Positions 2,389 to 11,737 of a stretch of DNA of 64,000 bases are shown here, piece after piece. Under the pieces are notes generated by a model, which was not told where the DNA came from, ran no database searches, and saw only the letters and a list, made by a program, of their open reading frames with translations. Position numbers and translations under genes: made by a program. Within the stretch, counting starts at the first letter, position 1. The number at the start of each line of letters is the position of its first letter. Source of the DNA: Escherichia coli (GTDB taxonomy: Bacteria; Pseudomonadota; Gammaproteobacteria; Enterobacterales; Enterobacteriaceae); the NCBI RefSeq assembly GCF_022846255.1, contig NZ_AP025682.1. One strand, written 5' to 3'.

Positions 2389-3279
2389 TTATTTCACCTG
2401 ACCACGGGCAAACAGGTCGTCGAGCTTCTCTTCGTACTGGTAGTAGTTGATGCTTTCGTACAGCTCGTTGCGGGTCTGCATGGTGTCGATGACGCTTTTC
2501 TGTGTGCCTTCCTGACGCAGGATGTTGTAGACATGTTCAGCGGCGCGGTTCATGGCGCGAAACGCTGAAAGCGGGTAGAGCGCCATTGCGACATGGGCGC
2601 TGCGTAATTCGTCGGTGGTAAACAGCGGTGTTGCGCCAAATTCGGTAATGTTGGCGAGGATCGGCACCTGCACCGCATCGGCAAACTGGCGATACATGGT
2701 GAGTTCGGTAATCGCCTCCGGGAACAGCATTTCGGCACCCGCTTCAACATAGGCCTCCGCTCGTTCGATTGCCGCATCCAGCCCCTCTACCGCCAGCGCA
2801 TCGGTGCGCGCCATGATCACAAAATCAGGATCGGTTTTCGCATCCACCGCCGCGCAGATCCGATCCACCATCTCTTCTTTCGAGACGATCGCTTTATTCG
2901 GACGATGACCGCAGCGTTTCGCACCAACCTGATCTTCAATATGCAATCCTGCCGCACCGGCTTTAATCATTGATTTCACCGTACGCGCCACGTTAAAGGC
3001 TGAAGAACCAAAACCGATATCCGCATCCACCAGCAGCGGCAGCGAACAAACGTCGGTAATACGGCGAATGTCAGTCAGCACATCATCAAGAGTAGAAATA
3101 CCGAGATCGGGCAGCCCCAGCGATCCTGCCGCCACGCCACCGCCGGAGAGATAAATCGCCTGATATCCGGCACGCTGCGCCAACAGCGCATGGTTGGCGT
3201 TAATGGTGCCAACAATTTGCAACGGGGTTTCTTTGCTAAGTGCAGCGCGAAACGCTTTACCTGGAGAGTGTAGAGACAT
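2389..3279 (-). CDS. prpB: 2-methylisocitrate lyase
   Basis: 296-aa ORF, PEP-mutase/isocitrate-lyase family sequence; upstream of prpC on the same strand. Confidence 0.95.
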
Positions 3280-3505: not shown

Positions 3506-5104
3506 TTGCGGTGCGCTATGGCACATCCACCACGGCTGAATGACGACAAACCGGTTATCTGGACGGTATCTGTAACGCGGCTGTTCGAGTTATTTCGCGA
3601 TATCAGCCTCGAGTTTGATCACCTGGCGAATATCACCCCTATCCAGCTTGGCTTTGAAAAAGCGGTGACCTACATCCGCAAGAAACTGGCAAACGAACGC
3701 TGCGACGCCATCATCGCTGCTGGCTCTAACGGCGCATATCTTAAAAGCCGCCTGTCAGTGCCAGTTATTTTGATTAAACCGAGCGGCTACGATGTGTTAC
3801 AGGCACTGGCAAAAGCCGGAAAACTCACCTCTTCTATCGGCGTTGTCACCTATCAGGAAACCATTCCAGCGCTGGTGGCGTTTCAAAAGACCTTTAATTT
3901 GCGCCTCGACCAACGTAGTTACATCACCGAAGAAGACGCCCGCGGGCAAATCAATGAGTTGAAAGCCAACGGCACCGAAGCGGTGGTCGGCGCGGGGCTG
4001 ATTACCGATCTGGCAGAAGAAGCCGGAATGACCGGAATTTTTATCTATTCCGCCGCCACCGTGCGCCAGGCGTTCAGCGATGCGCTGGATATGACGCGCA
4101 TGTCTCTACGGCATAACACTCACGATGCCACCCGCAACGCCCTGCGTACTCGTTACGTGCTGGGCGATATGCTCGGTCAATCACCACAGATGGAACAGGT
4201 GCGGCAGACTATTTTGCTGTATGCCCGCTCCAGTGCGGCGGTGTTGATTGAGGGGGAAACGGGGACGGGCAAAGAGCTGGCGGCCCAGGCGATTCATCGG
4301 GAATATTTTGCCCGCCACGATGCGCGACAGGGCAAAAAGTCACATCCGTTTGTTGCCGTCAACTGCGGGGCGATTGCCGAATCGCTGCTGGAAGCAGAGC
4401 TGTTTGGCTATGAGGAAGGGGCGTTCACCGGCTCGCGACGCGGAGGTCGCGCCGGGCTGTTCGAAATTGCCCACGGCGGTACGCTGTTTCTGGATGAGAT
4501 TGGCGAAATGCCGCTACCTTTGCAGACTCGCCTGTTACGGGTGCTGGAAGAAAAAGAGGTCACCCGCGTCGGCGGGCATCAGCCTGTTCCGGTGGATGTG
4601 CGGGTCATTAGCGCCACTCACTGCAATCTGGAAGAAGATATGCAGCAAGGGCAGTTTCGCCGTGACCTGTTTTATCGGCTGAGTATTTTACGCCTGCAAC
4701 TGCCGCCGCTACGCGAGCGGGTGGCGGATATTCTGCCGCTGGCGGAAAGCTTTTTGAAAGTGTCTCTGGCGGCGCTCTCCGCCCCGTTTTCTGCCGCATT
4801 ACGCCAGGGGTTACAGGCAAGTGAAACTGTGCTGCTGCGCTACGACTGGCCGGGCAATATTCGAGAACTGCGCAATATGATGGAGCGACTGGCGCTGTTT
4901 TTAAGTGTGGAACCGACGCCGGATTTAACGCCGCAATTTTTGCAGCTGCTACTGCCGGAACTGGCACGCAAGTCGGCGAAGACTCCCATTCCAGGCTTGC
5001 TGACAGCACAACAGGCACTGGAGAAATTTAATGGCGATAAGACAGCAGCGGCGAATTATTTAGGTATCAGCCGAACGACGTTCTGGCGGCGGCTGAAAAG
5101 CTGA
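3506..5104 (+). CDS. prpR: sigma54-dependent transcriptional activator of propionate catabolism (true start possibly at 3518, MAHPPRLN...)
   Basis: 532-aa ORF with AAA+ sigma54-interaction motifs ([13 protein letters not shown]) and C-terminal HTH; divergent from prpB. Confidence 0.9.
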
Positions 5105-5204: not shown

Positions 5205-5480
5205 TTACTTCTTCTTATAAATATTTGCCGTGCCGTGGATCTTATTGTCAGTTTGACCAGAGGTCAGTACCAACACATCAGCCCCTTTTTCATCGGCTTT
5301 TTTGATCAAATCTTCTTTCGCATCTGCGGTCGACATTTCATTACTGGTTGAAATATCACCTATTTTTTCATATTGCGATGCAACCTTTTCAAATTCCGCT
5401 TTGGTCATTAATTCTGCGGCATAGACATTGGTAACGGCAAACGCTAACGCACCGACTAACATTTTAGAGATTATTTTCAT
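5205..5480 (-). CDS. yahO: small periplasmic stress-induced protein (DUF1471/YahO family)
   Basis: 91-aa ORF with N-terminal signal peptide; conserved position beside prpR. Confidence 0.8.
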
Positions 5481-5626
5481 ATTACGGCTCCAGAGTTGTT
5501 ATCACACTATCACCCACCCACATTATTGGGTTGATTAATAATTAGTTCAGTCAGGGCATAAACGCCAGTAACCGGAAATAAGACACTTTGTGATCTCTCT
5601 CGCACCCGATTATTTTTGGTAGAAAT

Positions 5627-6301
5627 ATGATGAAGTTACTTCACTTATTTATGGATGAAATCACTATGGATCCTTTGCACGCCGTTTACCTGACCGTAGG
5701 ATTGTTCGTGATTACTTTTTTTAATCCGGGAGCCAATCTCTTTGTGGTAGTACAAACCAGCCTGGCTTCCGGTCGACGCGCAGGGGTGTTGACCGGGCTG
5801 GGCGTGGCGCTGGGCGATGCATTTTATTCCGGGTTGGGTTTGTTTGGTCTTGCAACGCTAATTACGCAGTGTGAGGAGATTTTTTCGCTTATCAGAATCG
5901 TCGGCGGTGCTTATCTTTTATGGTTTGCGTGGTGTAGTAGCATGCGCCGCCACTCAACACCGCAAATGAGCACACTACAACAACCGATTAGCGCCCCCTG
6001 GTATGTCTTTTTCCGCCGTGGATTAATTACCGATCTCTCTAACCCGCAAACCGTTTTATTTTTTATCAGTATTTTCTCAGTAACATTACATGCCGAAACA
6101 CCAACATGGGCACGATTAATGGCCTGGGCGGGGATTGTGCTCGCATCAATTATCTGGCGAGTCTTTCTTAGTCAGGCGTTTTCTTTGCCCGCAGTGCGTC
6201 GTGCTTATGGGCGTATGCAACGCGTTGCCAGTTGGGTTATTGGTGCAATTATTGGTGTATTCGCGCTACGCCTGATTTACGAAGGGGTGACGCAGCGGTG
6301 A
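5627..6301 (+). CDS. yahN: LysE/RhtB-family amino-acid exporter
   Basis: 224-aa hydrophobic ORF with multiple predicted TM segments; conserved synteny. Confidence 0.8.
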   Translation: MMKLLHLFMDEITMDPLHAVYLTVGLFVITFFNPGANLFVVVQTSLASGRRAGVLTGLGVALGDAFYSGLGLFGLATLITQCEEIFSLIRIVGGAYLLWFAWCSSMRRHSTPQMSTLQQPISAPWYVFFRRGLITDLSNPQTVLFFISIFSVTLHAETPTWARLMAWAGIVLASIIWRVFLSQAFSLPAVRRAYGRMQRVASWVIGAIIGVFALRLIYEGVTQR

Positions 6302-6317
6302 GCAGATAATTTACTCT

Positions 6318-6563
6318 CTACGTAATCAACCTGATTTGCCGAATCCCAACCATCGGCGATGATAGCCCCCGTAATGCGTGGTCCTTATTTCCGATAAGTT
6401 TACTTGAGTCTTTAGCTTCCCATTTCAGCCCACTCTCCCCTGTGTGGGCTTTTTTCATTGTTCTGACCCGTCCTGAATAGCCAAACAATGGCAATGTTCC
6501 ACTTTGCAGGGATGATAATAAGGGGATCTGATTCAGAAAAGTTTTGAAAAGTTGGACCGCCAT
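6318..6563 (-). CDS. yahM: small protein YahM (81 aa from internal Met)
   Basis: Position and length match yahM synteny between yahN and yahK; no sequence-level confirmation possible. Confidence 0.4.
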   Translation of the reverse strand: MAVQLFKTFLNQIPLLSSLQSGTLPLFGYSGRVRTMKKAHTGESGLKWEAKDSSKLIGNKDHALRGLSSPMVGIRQIRLIT

Positions 6564-7184
6564 CGAGGCCTCGAACCCCGTACCATACAACAATCCTGGT
6601 TGTCGTCTGCTCTTCCTGATGAGCTAATGGCGGTTTTTGATATGAGCCTTACAACATATTTTCTGTCAGGCTTGAGTGCGATGCGTAAGATACAGAAAAG
6701 ACCCCACACAAACATGATGGAATTATGATTTTTTTCATATGAATGTCAACCCACACATTCACAAAACATCTGTATGAGAACATTTTTTATACACCATATA
6801 GCTGCGAAACCACTACTGGTGCTTTTTTAAGCGAAACTCCGCCGTTCACAACAAAATATCGGCGAAAAAGGAGGGGGAATGCCATTTGGCATACAGATAC
6901 ACAGATGAAATGATGACCTGCTTTGCGATTCACTCTCTGGTGGAATAACAACTTGCAGGTGGCTCTCTTAAATAAAAATAAACGTCGCAGATAATAAAGC
7001 TCTGATTAAACCATACACTATCAGAAATCGCTCATAACTAACGTGTAAAGTAGTGGAGTTAATTTAACAATCTGAATTTACGCTATAGGTTTACCACTAC
7101 TTTGATATTATTTCGCTCTCCTTAACTAAAAAGTTAAGTGGAGCGAAGTTAATATGTTAAACCACAGGATGTTTATTAATTTTT

Positions 7185-8234
7185 TCAGTCTGTTAGTGTG
7201 CGATTATCGATAACAAAACGATATTTCACATCACCACGCAGCATTCGCTCATAGGCTTCATTAATTTGATCGGCCCGAATCATCTCTATATCAGCCACGA
7301 TGCCATGTTCGGCGCAAAAATCGAGCATCTCCTGAGTTTCTGGAATGCCGCCAATCATAGAACCAGCTATCGCGCGGCGTTTCATGATCAGGTTGAAAAC
7401 TTCCGGGGATTTATGCGGTGTCGCAGGCGCACCAACCAGCGTTATGGTGCCATCGCGCTTCAGCAAGGTGGTAAAATCGTCGAGATTATGTGGCGCAGCT
7501 ACTGTATTCAAAATGAAATCGAAACTCTTCACATGAGCCGCCATCTCATCGGCATTGCGTGAGTTAACAACTTCATCGGCCCCCAGGGCTTTTGCCGCTT
7601 CGCGTTTTGACTCAGAAGTGGTAAATGCCACCACATGCGCCCCCATCGCGTGGGCCAGTTTAATCCCCATATGTCCCAGACCGCCGATGCCGACCACGCC
7701 CACTTTTTTACCCGGCCCGGCCTGCCAGTGGCGTAGCGGCGAGTACGTGGTGATTCCTGCACACAATAAAGGAGCCACCGCCGCCAGCTGCTCTTGCGGG
7801 TGACGAATACGCAGAACATATCGCTCATGAACGACGATCTGTTGTGAGTAGCCGCCCAGAGTATGGCCCGGTTCATCCGGTGTCGGCGAGTTATAGGTTC
7901 CGGTCATGTGATCACAGTAGTTTTCCAGCCCATCTTCACACTCTTCGCAATGTTTACAACTGTCGACAATGCAGCCGACACCAACCAGATCGCCCGGCGC
8001 ATGTTTTTCTACCTGATCACCAACGGCTACCACGCGCCCCACAATTTCATGACCCGGCACGCAGGGGTAAACCGTCCCCGCCCACTCCGAACGGACCTGG
8101 TGGAGATCGGAATGGCAGACGCCACAGTAAGCGATTTCGATTTTGACATCATGCGGTCCCGGTTCACGCCGGGTGATATCCATCGGTTCAAGGGGTTGTT
8201 TAGCGGAATATGCACCAACAGCTTTGATCTTCAT
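7185..8234 (-). CDS. yahK: NADPH-dependent aldehyde reductase, zinc-containing alcohol dehydrogenase family
   Basis: 349-aa ORF with GHEIVG zinc-ADH motif and GIGGLG Rossmann motif. Confidence 0.9.
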   Translation of the reverse strand: MKIKAVGAYSAKQPLEPMDITRREPGPHDVKIEIAYCGVCHSDLHQVRSEWAGTVYPCVPGHEIVGRVVAVGDQVEKHAPGDLVGVGCIVDSCKHCEECEDGLENYCDHMTGTYNSPTPDEPGHTLGGYSQQIVVHERYVLRIRHPQEQLAAVAPLLCAGITTYSPLRHWQAGPGKKVGVVGIGGLGHMGIKLAHAMGAHVVAFTTSESKREAAKALGADEVVNSRNADEMAAHVKSFDFILNTVAAPHNLDDFTTLLKRDGTITLVGAPATPHKSPEVFNLIMKRRAIAGSMIGGIPETQEMLDFCAEHGIVADIEMIRADQINEAYERMLRGDVKYRFVIDNRTLTD

Positions 8235-8320
8235 TGTGTTTACTCCTGATTAGCTATGTGTATTTGGCGATGCCTGATATGTCATCGCGGCAAAACGCGT
8301 CCATTGAATATAGCCAATAT

Positions 8321-9277
8321 TTAAACCACCCGATCCAGCCCCAACATGCCGCGAGCCTGAATGAAACAGAGCAGCAACGTTCCCCATAAGGCCATCGTCA
8401 GGTAGGGGCTTATACCGAGAATATTGAAGCCGCTTTCAATAATTTGCAGAAGAAACAGCGCCAGCACCATACCAATTATCCGCCCGCTGCCGCCGTCCGG
8501 ATTAACCCCGCCGAGTACTGCCGCGAGGATTGACACCAGCAAGTACGATTCGCCATAAGAGGCCTTAGCCGAGTTGAGTTTCGACATCATCAAAAATGCC
8601 GCTACCGCACAAAGCAAGGCGGAAATGACATACACCCATATCAGCACCCGACGAGTGTTAATACCGGAGTAAAGTGTTGCTCGTTCGTTAGAACCAATCA
8701 GATAAATGGCTTTACCGAGCGGCGTTTTCTCCAGCAATATCCACAGCCCCAGCGCCACTGCGGTAAACAACCACATCGGTAGCGGAATACCGAACCACTG
8801 TGCATGATTCAACCACAGCACCCATGAGGGATAATTGGCAATGGCGCTACCGCCTGTCACCAGAATATTTACCCCTTTGAGCAACGTCATCATCCCAAGC
8901 GTTGCAAGAATTGGCGACACTCGAATACCAGCAATCAATACGCCGTTACATAAACCGATTATCACCGCCGCGCCAGCGCCTGCCAGTAACGTAGCGACAA
9001 CCGTAGCAATACCCGGTGGATACTGAGTCGCCACCCACGCCATCACCAGTGAACAGGCGTTAGCAGTGGCTATAATTGACAAGTTAATGCCACCGCAAAG
9101 CATGGTCACCGCCATAGCCAACGCCAGAATGCCCAGCACGGGCATTTGCGAAGCGACGGACTGGAAATTACTTATCGACCAGAAAATCTCCGGCATAGTA
9201 ATGCTGAAGGCGGCAACAGTTAGCACCAGCAGGCCGATCAAGTAAAACTCAACGTTATTACGCCACGATTTTTTCAT
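8321..9277 (-). CDS. ABC transporter permease (RbsC/LsrD-like); start taken at MKKSW, ORF extends to 9307
   Basis: Highly hydrophobic 318-328 aa ORF; 4-bp overlap with upstream permease. Confidence 0.8.
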   Translation of the reverse strand: MKKSWRNNVEFYLIGLLVLTVAAFSITMPEIFWSISNFQSVASQMPVLGILALAMAVTMLCGGINLSIIATANACSLVMAWVATQYPPGIATVVATLLAGAGAAVIIGLCNGVLIAGIRVSPILATLGMMTLLKGVNILVTGGSAIANYPSWVLWLNHAQWFGIPLPMWLFTAVALGLWILLEKTPLGKAIYLIGSNERATLYSGINTRRVLIWVYVISALLCAVAAFLMMSKLNSAKASYGESYLLVSILAAVLGGVNPDGGSGRIIGMVLALFLLQIIESGFNILGISPYLTMALWGTLLLCFIQARGMLGLDRVV

Positions 9278-10245
9278 AGCAGACTCCGGTTCTGATGCTG
9301 ACTCCACGCCGTGGCGCTAATGCTGGCAACGATGATGATGCCAGTGATCAATGTTTGCCAGTAAGACGAGACTCCCAATAAATTTAGCCCGTTTTGCATC
9401 ACTGCCAACAACACCACGCCGAGCAAAGTACCGGTTAACGTGCCGCGCCCGCCGAGCAAACTAGTGCCGCCAAGCACCACCGCAGCCAGTACTGTCAGCT
9501 CATAACCCAGAAGAGAATCGGGGGCGACAGTCATCACCGTCCACGACTGCACTACACCCGCAGCACCAGACATCAATCCCATATAGCCATAGACGAAAAG
9601 TTGCAGTTTCAGCACACTAAAGCCGATGCGACTGGCTGATTCGCGGTTCCCGCCAAGGGCATAAATTTTGCGCCCTACACTGGTGAAATTCATGATAAAC
9701 GCTGTTAGCAGCACCACCGTAATCATGGCGATCAGCGGTAGACCAAGGCCATAGTCATAGCCATCAGCATCGGTGTACTTGAACAACATAACCCCCTGCT
9801 CAAACCACGGCGGAAAGTCGTACAGCCACACACCTTTACTCAACCATAACAGCAGGCCATAGAAAATATTCAGCGTCGAGATAGTGATGATGATAGAAGG
9901 CACCCGTAGGCGATTAACCAGTAAGGCGTTAATTAAGCCAAGTAAAATGCCGATGCCGCCCGCCAGTGCAAACGCGACAGCAAAGTTACCACCCATTTTT
10001 TGCAGCAACAGCACCATGCCGTATTGCGCAATGATGGTCATTGCTGGAAACGAAATATCAATTCCACCGGAAATCAACACCACAAACAAACCACAGGCGA
10101 GAATAGTCAACATGGCATAGTTATTGGCGAGATCGTACAAATTACCGAATGTCAGAAACTCGTCGCTGCGCCAGGCAAGGCCGACAAACAGCCCCACAAT
10201 CAGTAATGCCAGCCAGAATTCATGACGTTTTTTCAGTTCAGCCAT
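9274..10245 (-). CDS. ABC transporter permease (RbsC/LsrC-like)
   Basis: 323-aa hydrophobic ORF; overlaps the ATPase gene by 8 bp. Confidence 0.8.
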   Translation of the reverse strand: MAELKKRHEFWLALLIVGLFVGLAWRSDEFLTFGNLYDLANNYAMLTILACGLFVVLISGGIDISFPAMTIIAQYGMVLLLQKMGGNFAVAFALAGGIGILLGLINALLVNRLRVPSIIITISTLNIFYGLLLWLSKGVWLYDFPPWFEQGVMLFKYTDADGYDYGLGLPLIAMITVVLLTAFIMNFTSVGRKIYALGGNRESASRIGFSVLKLQLFVYGYMGLMSGAAGVVQSWTVMTVAPDSLLGYELTVLAAVVLGGTSLLGGRGTLTGTLLGVVLLAVMQNGLNLLGVSSYWQTLITGIIIVASISATAWSQHQNRSLL

Positions 10246-11737
10246 TTACCACCTCCGCAATCCTGGCCTGAGAACTGCTGTCAGGCAGGAAGCTATGGGT
10301 GATCTGACCTTTTTGCATTACCAAAATCCGGTGGCTTTGATACCACGCTTCTTCAATTTCATCGCAGATCATCAATACCGCAATGCCATGAGCCGCCAGA
10401 TCGCTGATAATGCCGTATATTCCTGCTTTGTTGGCGATATCAACACCGACTGTCGGGCTATCGAGAATCAACAGTCGTGGCCCAATCGCCAGCCATTTGG
10501 CGATCGATACTCGCTGCGCGTTACCACCAGAAAGCGTATTCACCGGGAGATGTGGGTCAGAGACTTTGATGGTCAATGCCTTGATTAGCCTGTCCACCAG
10601 GTCACGCACTTTAGCTTCACTCAGAAAGCCGAAGCGATCTTTTACCTTGTGAAAAACAGTGCTAATGATGTTGTCTTCAATAGATTGCGCCATCACCAAA
10701 CCGCGCGACATGCGATCTTCCGAAACATAACCAATACCGTGGCGGATGGCGTCCTGGTTACTATGCAGTGTAACCGGCTGACCGTTGATGAGGATCTCGC
10801 CAGCATCCGGTCGGGTCATACCAAACAGACTCAGACATAATTCCGTGCGCCCCGCACCAAGCAGGCCAATAATCGACACCACTTCGCCCGCTTCCACCCG
10901 CAAGTTAATATTTTGATATTCCCCATGACGACTTAAATTACGCACCTCCAGCACTGGGATGCTGGATTTTCCCTGCCACAACTCTCGTACCTGATATTCA
11001 AACTCCTGGCCGGTCATCAGGAAACCGAGTTGTTTTGTGGTCATCTCTGCAGCCGGAAAGGTCCCGACCAGCTCACCATCTTTCAGCACTGAAATACGGT
11101 CGGAAACTTCCATCACCTCTTCCAGACGATGACTGACGAAGACCACGCAGATCCCGCGTTCCCGCAATTGATGCACCACCTGTAATAACCCTTGCACTTC
11201 CTGATGGGTCAGCGAAGCGGTTGGTTCATCCATCACAATCAACCGTGCGTCCTGCGCCAGTGCACGGCAAATTGCCACCAGCTGACAGCGGGCAATTGAA
11301 AGCTCAGAAACGAGCGTATCCAGTGGCAATGTGACGTTAACACTGGTCATTGCCGCCTGCGCCACCTCACGCAGACGACGTCGGTTAACAAACAGACCGT
11401 GGTGATAGTGATTCACGGCGATATTCTCCCAGACACTCAGGTTAGGAAATAAAGAGAGGTCCTGATAAATCACCTGAATCCCCTGCGCCACCGAAGCGGC
11501 GGGTGTCAGCTTTGACCAGTTTTTCCCACCAAGCGTAATTTCCGCTCCCTCATCCGGGCGATAAACACCGGACATAATTTTAATCAACGTCGATTTACCA
11601 CAGCCGTTTTGCCCGGCAAGGCAGTGCACTTCACCCGACATAAAGTCGAGAGAAACATCGCGCAGCGCTCGCGTGGCATGAAACGTTTTGTTGATATGAC
11701 GAAGGGAAAGGAAGGTTTCCATAACATCCCCTGGCAA
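10238..11737 (-). CDS. sugar ABC transporter ATP-binding protein with duplicated ABC domains (RbsA/LsrA-like)
   Basis: Two Walker A motifs (GQNGCGKST, GLLGAGRTE) and signature-like LSGGNAQR in one 499-aa ORF. Confidence 0.9.
   Translation of the reverse strand: MPGDVMETFLSLRHINKTFHATRALRDVSLDFMSGEVHCLAGQNGCGKSTLIKIMSGVYRPDEGAEITLGGKNWSKLTPAASVAQGIQVIYQDLSLFPNLSVWENIAVNHYHHGLFVNRRRLREVAQAAMTSVNVTLPLDTLVSELSIARCQLVAICRALAQDARLIVMDEPTASLTHQEVQGLLQVVHQLRERGICVVFVSHRLEEVMEVSDRISVLKDGELVGTFPAAEMTTKQLGFLMTGQEFEYQVRELWQGKSSIPVLEVRNLSRHGEYQNINLRVEAGEVVSIIGLLGAGRTELCLSLFGMTRPDAGEILINGQPVTLHSNQDAIRHGIGYVSEDRMSRGLVMAQSIEDNIISTVFHKVKDRFGFLSEAKVRDLVDRLIKALTIKVSDPHLPVNTLSGGNAQRVSIAKWLAIGPRLLILDSPTVGVDIANKAGIYGIISDLAAHGIAVLMICDEIEEAWYQSHRILVMQKGQITHSFLPDSSSQARIAEVVNG

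Follow-up and report, generated by a model that had tools for sequence, protein, structure and literature searches.

The analysed window, a stretch of 64,000 nucleotides of Escherichia coli DNA, carries the yahK-yahN region in the reverse of the K-12 order: prpB (2389-3279, minus strand), prpR (3506-5104, plus strand), yahO (5205-5480, minus strand), yahN, the interval under study, yahK and then ABC-transporter permeases. In comparison to the yahK-yahL-xtpA-yahM-yahN locus of MG1655 (b0325-b0328, b4845), the gene order and orientation agree. The yahK, xtpA, yahM and yahN genes are intact and show 93-98% protein or 96-97.5% nucleotide identity, and the hairpin at the 3′ side of yahK is alike in the two genomes. 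Beyond yahK, MG1655 has yahJ, whereas the window has an ABC-transporter permease. This outer region (window 8321-11737, minus strand) shows variation unrelated to that of yahL: the window, strain A0 34/86 and the two divergent Escherichia lineages L004 and L007 have a ribose-type ABC transporter there, while yahJ is found in K-12 and in the yahL-less strain ABU 83972 (L013 3929-5140), which keeps a short remnant ORF between yahK and yahJ. The features of the interval and its borders are collected in Table 1.

Table 1. Features of the yahN-yahK interval and its flanking genes (positions in the window)
Feature	Position	Strand	Remarks
yahN, LysE-family exporter	5627..6301	+	224-aa ORF; 97.2% identity to K-12 yahN
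yahM, intact	6318..6563	-	81 aa; 75/81 residues identical to K-12 YahM, no gaps; annotated yahM in closest genomes
Probable intrinsic terminator of yahN	6427..6457	+	GCCCACA...TGTGGGC then T6; inside yahM, opposite strand
xtpA, small protein, leaderless mRNA	6533..6715	-	60 aa; 59/60 residues identical to K-12 XtpA (b4845)
tRNA-like sequence inside the xtpA ORF	6553..6633	-	ARAGORN: tRNA-Ser(gga)
Sigma-70 promoter of xtpA	6722..6749	-	TTGACA, 16 nt, CATAAT; 11/12 consensus match
Deletion junction (very probable)	6962..6963	.	K-12 carries 835 extra bp here
Former yahK-yahL intergenic region (yahK 3′ UTR and former yahL upstream sequence)	6963..7184	-	aligns to K-12, L002 4935-5170
Perfect 10-bp inverted repeat, haplotype-specific	7047..7103	-	inverted repeat I5
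Conserved hairpin, yahK mRNA 3′ end	7112..7147	-	inverted repeat I1
yahK, NADPH-dependent aldehyde reductase	7185..8234	-	349-aa ORF; 97.5% nucleotide identity to K-12; annotated in strain 104 (L001)

The first-pass annotation of this DNA had described an interval of about 620 bp with no ORF above 91 aa. Both figures were reproduced: 621 bp separate yahK from the start of yahM at 6563, and the longest frame, of 91 aa (6318-6593, minus strand), is yahM itself, extended upstream beyond the 81 aa that begin at its ATG (6563). The apparently empty spacer nevertheless holds known small features, namely xtpA, the tRNA-like sequence and the 3′-end hairpin of yahK; xtpA and its internal tRNA-like sequence had been missed at the first pass. 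In Muto et al. 2022, as cited in RegulonDB v12 (PMC10767902), xtpA is a leaderless small-protein gene containing a tRNA-like sequence, and in the window a 60-aa ORF likewise reads through such a sequence. From the spacing of the promoter, the first transcribed base is predicted to be the A of the xtpA ATG (6715), and the K-12 "yahM 5′ UTR" cloned by Adams et al. 2021 (PMC7815308) starts at ATGTTTGTGTGGGG, which corresponds to the window from 6715 downward. The tRNA-like sequence is identical between the window and K-12, and the start codon of yahM sits in its 3′ end. ARAGORN assigns it a cloverleaf, but the Rfam tRNA covariance model gave no match at E ≤ 1 when 5400-8400 was scanned, and no paper linking yahM to the term "tRNA-like" was found in the searchable literature. 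The Term-seq data of Adams et al. 2021 (PMC7815308) place a K-12 3′ end at 345390 (+) inside the tRNA-like sequence in all three growth conditions and a strong Rho termination region (Rho score 6.2) inside yahM at 345585; therefore, xtpA/yahM transcription is attenuated within this element in K-12. Position 345390 corresponds to about 6577 of the window (minus strand), which directly precedes the T-arm and is 14 nt away from the yahM start on its upstream side. On the opposite strand, the terminator candidate of yahN folds at −13.7 kcal/mol (z −2.8) and was missed by a simple consensus terminator scan. Rfam gave a single hit, a near-match to the unrelated family "Betaproteobacteria toxic sRNA" at 6407-6457 (E 0.64, sub-threshold), which was rejected as a family assignment, as it reflects the shape of a terminator.

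At the other end of the interval, 38 nt after the yahK stop codon, lies a hairpin with 16-nt arms (7112-7127 and 7132-7147, 88% complementary) and a 4-nt loop, matching within one base the imperfect hairpin that had been noticed at 7112-7146. Its predicted fold of −20.6 kcal/mol (z −7.5) was matched by none of 200 shuffles, and the hairpin also folds in K-12 (−22.3), L007 (−22.1) and L004 (−19.0 kcal/mol); it is conserved in all the lineages compared. Standard pairs occupied 95% of the pair cells, versus 40-50% in slid controls, and one pair is found as U-A, C-G and U-G. The covariation in these four sequences was not significant (378 of 500 shuffles reached the value). The window hairpin has a 2x2 internal loop where K-12 has a bulge. 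It also carries a 2-bp deletion that is common to strain A0 34/86, which has yahL, and this small deletion is therefore older than the loss of yahL. In K-12, Term-seq 3′ ends were mapped at 344011 and 344013 (+), 3-5 nt after the hairpin at 343971-344008 (Adams et al. 2021, PMC7815308, Supplementary files 1-3), and a bicyclomycin-sensitive Rho termination region at 344049, 36 nt downstream (Rho score 3.6, p 1.8e-5; PMC7815308). The equivalent positions in the window are 7107 and 7109 for the 3′ ends and about 7072 for the Rho region, all on the minus strand. No U-tract follows the hairpin (tail sequence AAAUAAUAU / AAAUAAUAUCAAAG), and a scan of 6200-7300 for the consensus of intrinsic terminators returned none. 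Read against the canonical features of an intrinsic terminator on the minus strand, a stable G+C-containing stem-loop after the stop codon is present and the U run is lacking.

Between these two sets of elements, the 271-aa yahL gene of K-12 is absent. The first-pass annotation, recalling a gene of roughly 270 aa, had suspected as much; K-12 carries yahL exactly here, and the sequence comparison found no counterpart in the window. In the pairwise BLAST alignment with MG1655, 96.3% identity over 6202-6962 breaks without overlap, and identity is back from 6963 at 92%; the alignment did not show the same short interval in K-12 with yahL lying elsewhere. The distance from yahN to yahK is 883 bp in the window versus 1733 bp in MG1655. 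The 835-bp block found only in K-12 (L002 5171-6005) comprises yahL (L002 5177-5992) together with the 6 bp that precede its ATG and the 13 bp that follow its stop codon; on the upstream side, the end-point immediately follows AAGAGAG, the putative ribosome-binding site of yahL. No foreign DNA was present at 6962|6963. Microhomology at the junction amounted to 0 bp, neither direct nor inverted repeats at the block ends were significant (p 0.07-1.0, best local alignment), the block has no terminal inverted repeats (p = 1.0), and the junction itself shows neither a repeat nor a structure. None of the marks of a mobile-element scar that were looked for (target-site duplication or direct repeats, terminal inverted repeats, occurrence at multiple loci or on mobile replicons) was found. 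The retained spacer (6963-7184) differs from its K-12 equivalent by 12 mismatches and three gaps of 11, 2 and 1 bp. Against yahL-carrying E. coli in general, it shows 9-12 substitutions and 2-3 indels in 222 bp, the flanking genes being less diverged (2-4%), and some of its states are common to the outgroup L004. This divergence is compatible with relaxed constraint after the loss of yahL or with an old recombination tract.

Two Escherichia lineages that are more distant, L007 and L004/L009, also have yahL at this position between yahK and yahN, as divergent alleles with 87% and 79% aa identity, respectively. The synonymous divergence (dS) of yahK is 0.09 between the window and K-12, 0.16 between either of them and L007, and 0.62-0.63 between either of them and L004, and on these values L007 and L004 are outgroups to the pair. 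For yahL itself, dS between K-12 and L004 is 0.665, practically the same as that of yahK, and dN/dS is 0.17-0.20; the gene has thus diverged vertically together with its neighbour and is a real gene under purifying selection. The homology between K-12 and L004 is continuous across the right-hand boundary of the block, and the flanks of the empty haplotype are 2-4% diverged from yahL-carrying E. coli versus 11-23% from L004. These comparisons, resting on two divergent lineages as outgroups, indicate that yahL is ancestral: the locus already contained it before E. coli separated from at least two more divergent Escherichia lineages. A single derived deletion is the parsimonious reading. A search of species-representative genomes with an exact 21-mer from the spacer had two hits, a divergent "E. 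coli" representative and a metagenome-assembled contig, and is uninformative for E. albertii, E. fergusonii and E. marmotae.

Homologues of YahL were found in Escherichia only, Pfam returned sub-threshold matches only, NCBIfam and PADLOC returned none, and no relative was found in the PDB. An AlphaFold2 model built with eight close homologues reached a pLDDT of 45.6 and was unusable. The gene is best described from its sequence as an Escherichia-restricted protein-coding gene of uncharacterised function that is under purifying selection. It has also been broken independently elsewhere, by an internal stop codon in APEC37 (L012 2175-2990) and by an IS1 insertion in NT1N31 (H31, NZ_CP075480.1). 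A truncated 210-aa allele occurs in L014 (4001-4633) and L015, and several clusters of 168-182-aa fragments exist, with dN/dS between intact copies still at about 0.2. Despite its loss in some genomes and its damage in others, yahL has been subject to purifying selection (dN/dS about 0.2) from a time that predates the split of E. coli from its sister lineages.

The distribution of the empty site was determined in 5426 complete E. coli genomes with a 140-bp probe centred on the junction. The contiguous empty junction was found in 1072 of them (approximately 20%), and every yahL-carrying genome split the probe exactly at 70|71. The yahL block was detected in 4076 genomes, invariably between yahK and xtpA; its plasmid matches were F-primes of K-12 or mislabelled chromosomes, and tblastn found no yahL homologue in phages. 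Across the interval, identity to the window is 98-99.8% for genomes without yahL and 95.2% for the best yahL-carrying genome, and all the yahL-less genomes examined have the 11-bp deletion and the linked substitutions in common. They appear to form one haplotype clade of single origin that includes ABU 83972, presumably B2/ST73, and MNCRE44, presumably ST131. No paper linking yahL to phylogroup B2 was found in the searchable literature. The retained interval is single-copy, with a median of one place per genome. Dispersed palindromic repeats of the REP/BIME or ERIC type, which require many copies, were ruled out on this count.

The explanation that accounts best for the locus as a whole, and that we regard as very probable, is that yahL was lost from the window by a derived, clean deletion of 835 bp at 6962|6963. 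A single event in the ancestor of one haplotype clade would have removed the gene, by illegitimate non-homologous end joining or by a replication error, since there are no repeats, no mobile element and no inserted sequence. It would have left both neighbouring functional units intact: the yahK 3′ region on one side and, on the other, yahM together with xtpA, including the xtpA promoter and the tRNA-like sequence within the leaderless ORF. An artefact of assembly or sequencing is refuted by the occurrence of an identical junction in 1072 independently finished genomes, and its probability is negligible. In the opposite polarity, the site without yahL in the window would be ancestral, and K-12-type lineages would have gained the gene by insertion of a compact one-gene cassette. 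This reading draws on the boundaries that hug the ORF and on the low G+C content (39%) and missing family assignment of yahL. With end-points spread evenly over the two intergenic regions (about 250 bp), such a tight fit would arise by coincidence in about 0.2% of cases, and the pattern is more suggestive of a cassette boundary than of random breakage; the tentative reason we offer is that deletions harming the flanking elements were selected against. However, a G+C content of about 40% extends across the whole interval rather than yahL alone, target-site duplications and terminal repeats are absent, and both outgroup lineages have yahL at this site, with K-12 and L004 homologous through the boundary. 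The equal dS of yahL and yahK speaks for vertical co-divergence and contradicts a transfer of the locus from E. coli to L004/L007, and the flanks of the empty site coalesce with those of yahL-carrying E. coli far more recently than with L004. An insertion is thus largely refuted and seems highly improbable. We assign a marginally lower probability still to the idea, raised in the first-pass annotation as a "deletion or insertion scar", that the removal or insertion of yahL left the hairpin-forming repeats behind, for example as mobile-element ends or a recombination site. The repeats do lie within the shortened interval, and the perfect 10-bp repeat occurs only in the yahL-less haplotype, alongside the 11-bp deletion. 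They are situated 85-185 bp from the junction, however, the nearest arm being 85 bp away from a structureless 6962|6963. The block has no flanking repeats and the interval is single-copy; for the hairpin at 7112-7147, which is present in all the yahL-carrying lineages, the proposal is refuted.

The roles of the two structures near yahK were weighed separately from the deletion. As for the conserved hairpin, the best reading is that it defines and protects the 3′ end of the yahK mRNA, as judged from 3′-end data obtained in K-12. Rho would terminate the transcript some tens of nucleotides downstream of the hairpin, and exonucleases would then trim the mRNA back to it; this is the most likely route in the window strain as well. 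The arrangement resembles Rho-dependent terminators with an upstream protective stem-loop: K-12 likewise has a hairpin without a U-tract, 3′ ends a few nucleotides after it and a bicyclomycin-sensitive region downstream. At such terminators, the mature 3′ end of the transcript is reportedly set by the stem-loop (Dar and Sorek 2018; Adams et al. 2021). The main competing possibility is that the hairpin acts as a non-canonical or bidirectional intrinsic terminator rather than as an exonuclease stop after Rho-dependent termination. A strong, conserved stem-loop 38 nt after the yahK stop codon, with K-12 RNA 3′ ends 3-5 nt downstream, would suit such a terminator, and the tail on the opposite strand is somewhat richer in U. 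Against it stand the tail AAAUAAUAU without a U-tract, the empty consensus scan, the Rho termination region 36 nt downstream in K-12 and the fact that Rho-terminated transcripts are typically trimmed back by 3′-to-5′ exonucleases (Adams et al. 2021, PMC7815308). We consider intrinsic termination unlikely, although it keeps the most weight among the alternatives discussed here. The earlier suggestion that the repeats may be a terminator for yahK is supported, with qualifications, for the hairpin at 7112-7147: it is conserved among Escherichia lineages and K-12 3′ ends lie 3-5 nt after it, but the canonical U-tract is missing and a Rho region lies just downstream. As for the second structure, AAAGTAGTGG at 7047-7056 pairs with CCACTACTTT at 7094-7103 (10 of 10 positions complementary, 37-nt loop), within one base of the inverted-repeat pair that had been placed near 7046 and 7095. 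When the 883 bp were shuffled with dinucleotide composition preserved, 5.7% of the shuffles contained a perfect inverted repeat of at least 10 bp with a loop of at most 60 nt, and the z score of the 7047-7103 fold was −3.0 on the minus and −1.8 on the plus strand. The repeat is absent from K-12, A0 34/86, L007 and L004, and the changes that produced it in the yahL-less haplotype were two deletions (11 bp and 1 bp) and about six substitutions; the equivalent segments of K-12 and A0 34/86 do not fold (z −0.8 and +1.2). It is probably fortuitous, being only marginally beyond chance, and would be a by-product of later small mutations in the yahL-less haplotype. The repeat might instead be functional, as a replacement insulator or terminator selected after the loss of yahL against read-through from yahK into xtpA-yahM, or it might be a product of quasipalindrome template switching. 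In favour of this, about eight changes clustered within 77 bp gave a perfect 10-bp stem in a segment that had not folded before, the stem covers the counterpart of the Rho termination region of K-12, and the sole variant seen (C to T in ABU 83972) retains a G-U pair on the yahK-sense strand. The chance expectation and the weak z scores given above count against such a role, as do the AT-rich 37-nt loop and the absence of a U-tract. Several of the "new" states also occur in the outgroup L004 and may be ancestral or recombined rather than selected. On balance, we hold a function or a template-switching origin to be quite unlikely, well below the chances of intrinsic termination at the conserved hairpin.

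The tRNA-like sequence has relatives in the ileZ-argN-argO cluster of lambdoid and Stx phages. The middle (argN) element of phiP27, between ileZ and argO, is homologous to it (85%, E 1e-17), and the window sequence is a degenerate copy of the element at this position. In comparison to the argN-position elements of phiP27 and of a prophage-like plasmid, the first 40 nt, the T-arm and the acceptor end are almost identical, and differences are confined to the anticodon/variable region. ARAGORN calls no tRNA in the phage homologues, and NCBI labels the plasmid copy "tRNA-OTHER" (the loci compared were window 6553-6633, minus strand, L016 1501-1582 and L008 3001-3081). Unlike the phage cluster, the sequence in the window stands alone, without ileZ or argO, and is read within a protein-coding leaderless mRNA. 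The similarity suggests that the sequence under xtpA and the yahM start codon is of phage origin. A much broader history can be imagined, in which the whole low-G+C yahK-yahN segment (yahL, xtpA and yahM) is an eroding relic of an ancient lambdoid-phage region whose sole recognisable trace is the degenerate middle tRNA of ileZ-argN-argO. In such a history, xtpA and yahM would have been born on the relic and the deletion of yahL would be a further step of decay, after which the yahK 3′ region would have been remodelled by the 10-bp repeat, re-insulating yahK from xtpA-yahM. We regard this scenario as speculative and doubtful.

Returning to the very probable deletion, the loss of yahL is an ordinary, widespread, derived gene-loss polymorphism, and the features surrounding it have already been described for K-12. 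The gene is dispensable: approximately 20% of complete E. coli genomes, extraintestinal pathogenic and ST131-type strains among them, have lost it outright. The locus reveals no new kind of system and its significance is small; the presence or absence of yahL can serve as a simple lineage marker and is useful for y-ome annotation. The junction is identical to that of the window in other yahL-less genomes, e.g., strain 104 (NZ_CP029164.1), ABU 83972 (NC_017631.1) and MNCRE44, where the NCBI annotation pipeline places only yahM between yahN and yahK. By annotation, yahM is frameshifted in strain 104 (L001 3017-3261) and ABU 83972 (L013 1928-2171), whereas it is intact in the window, and it may be decaying too in the yahL-less clade.
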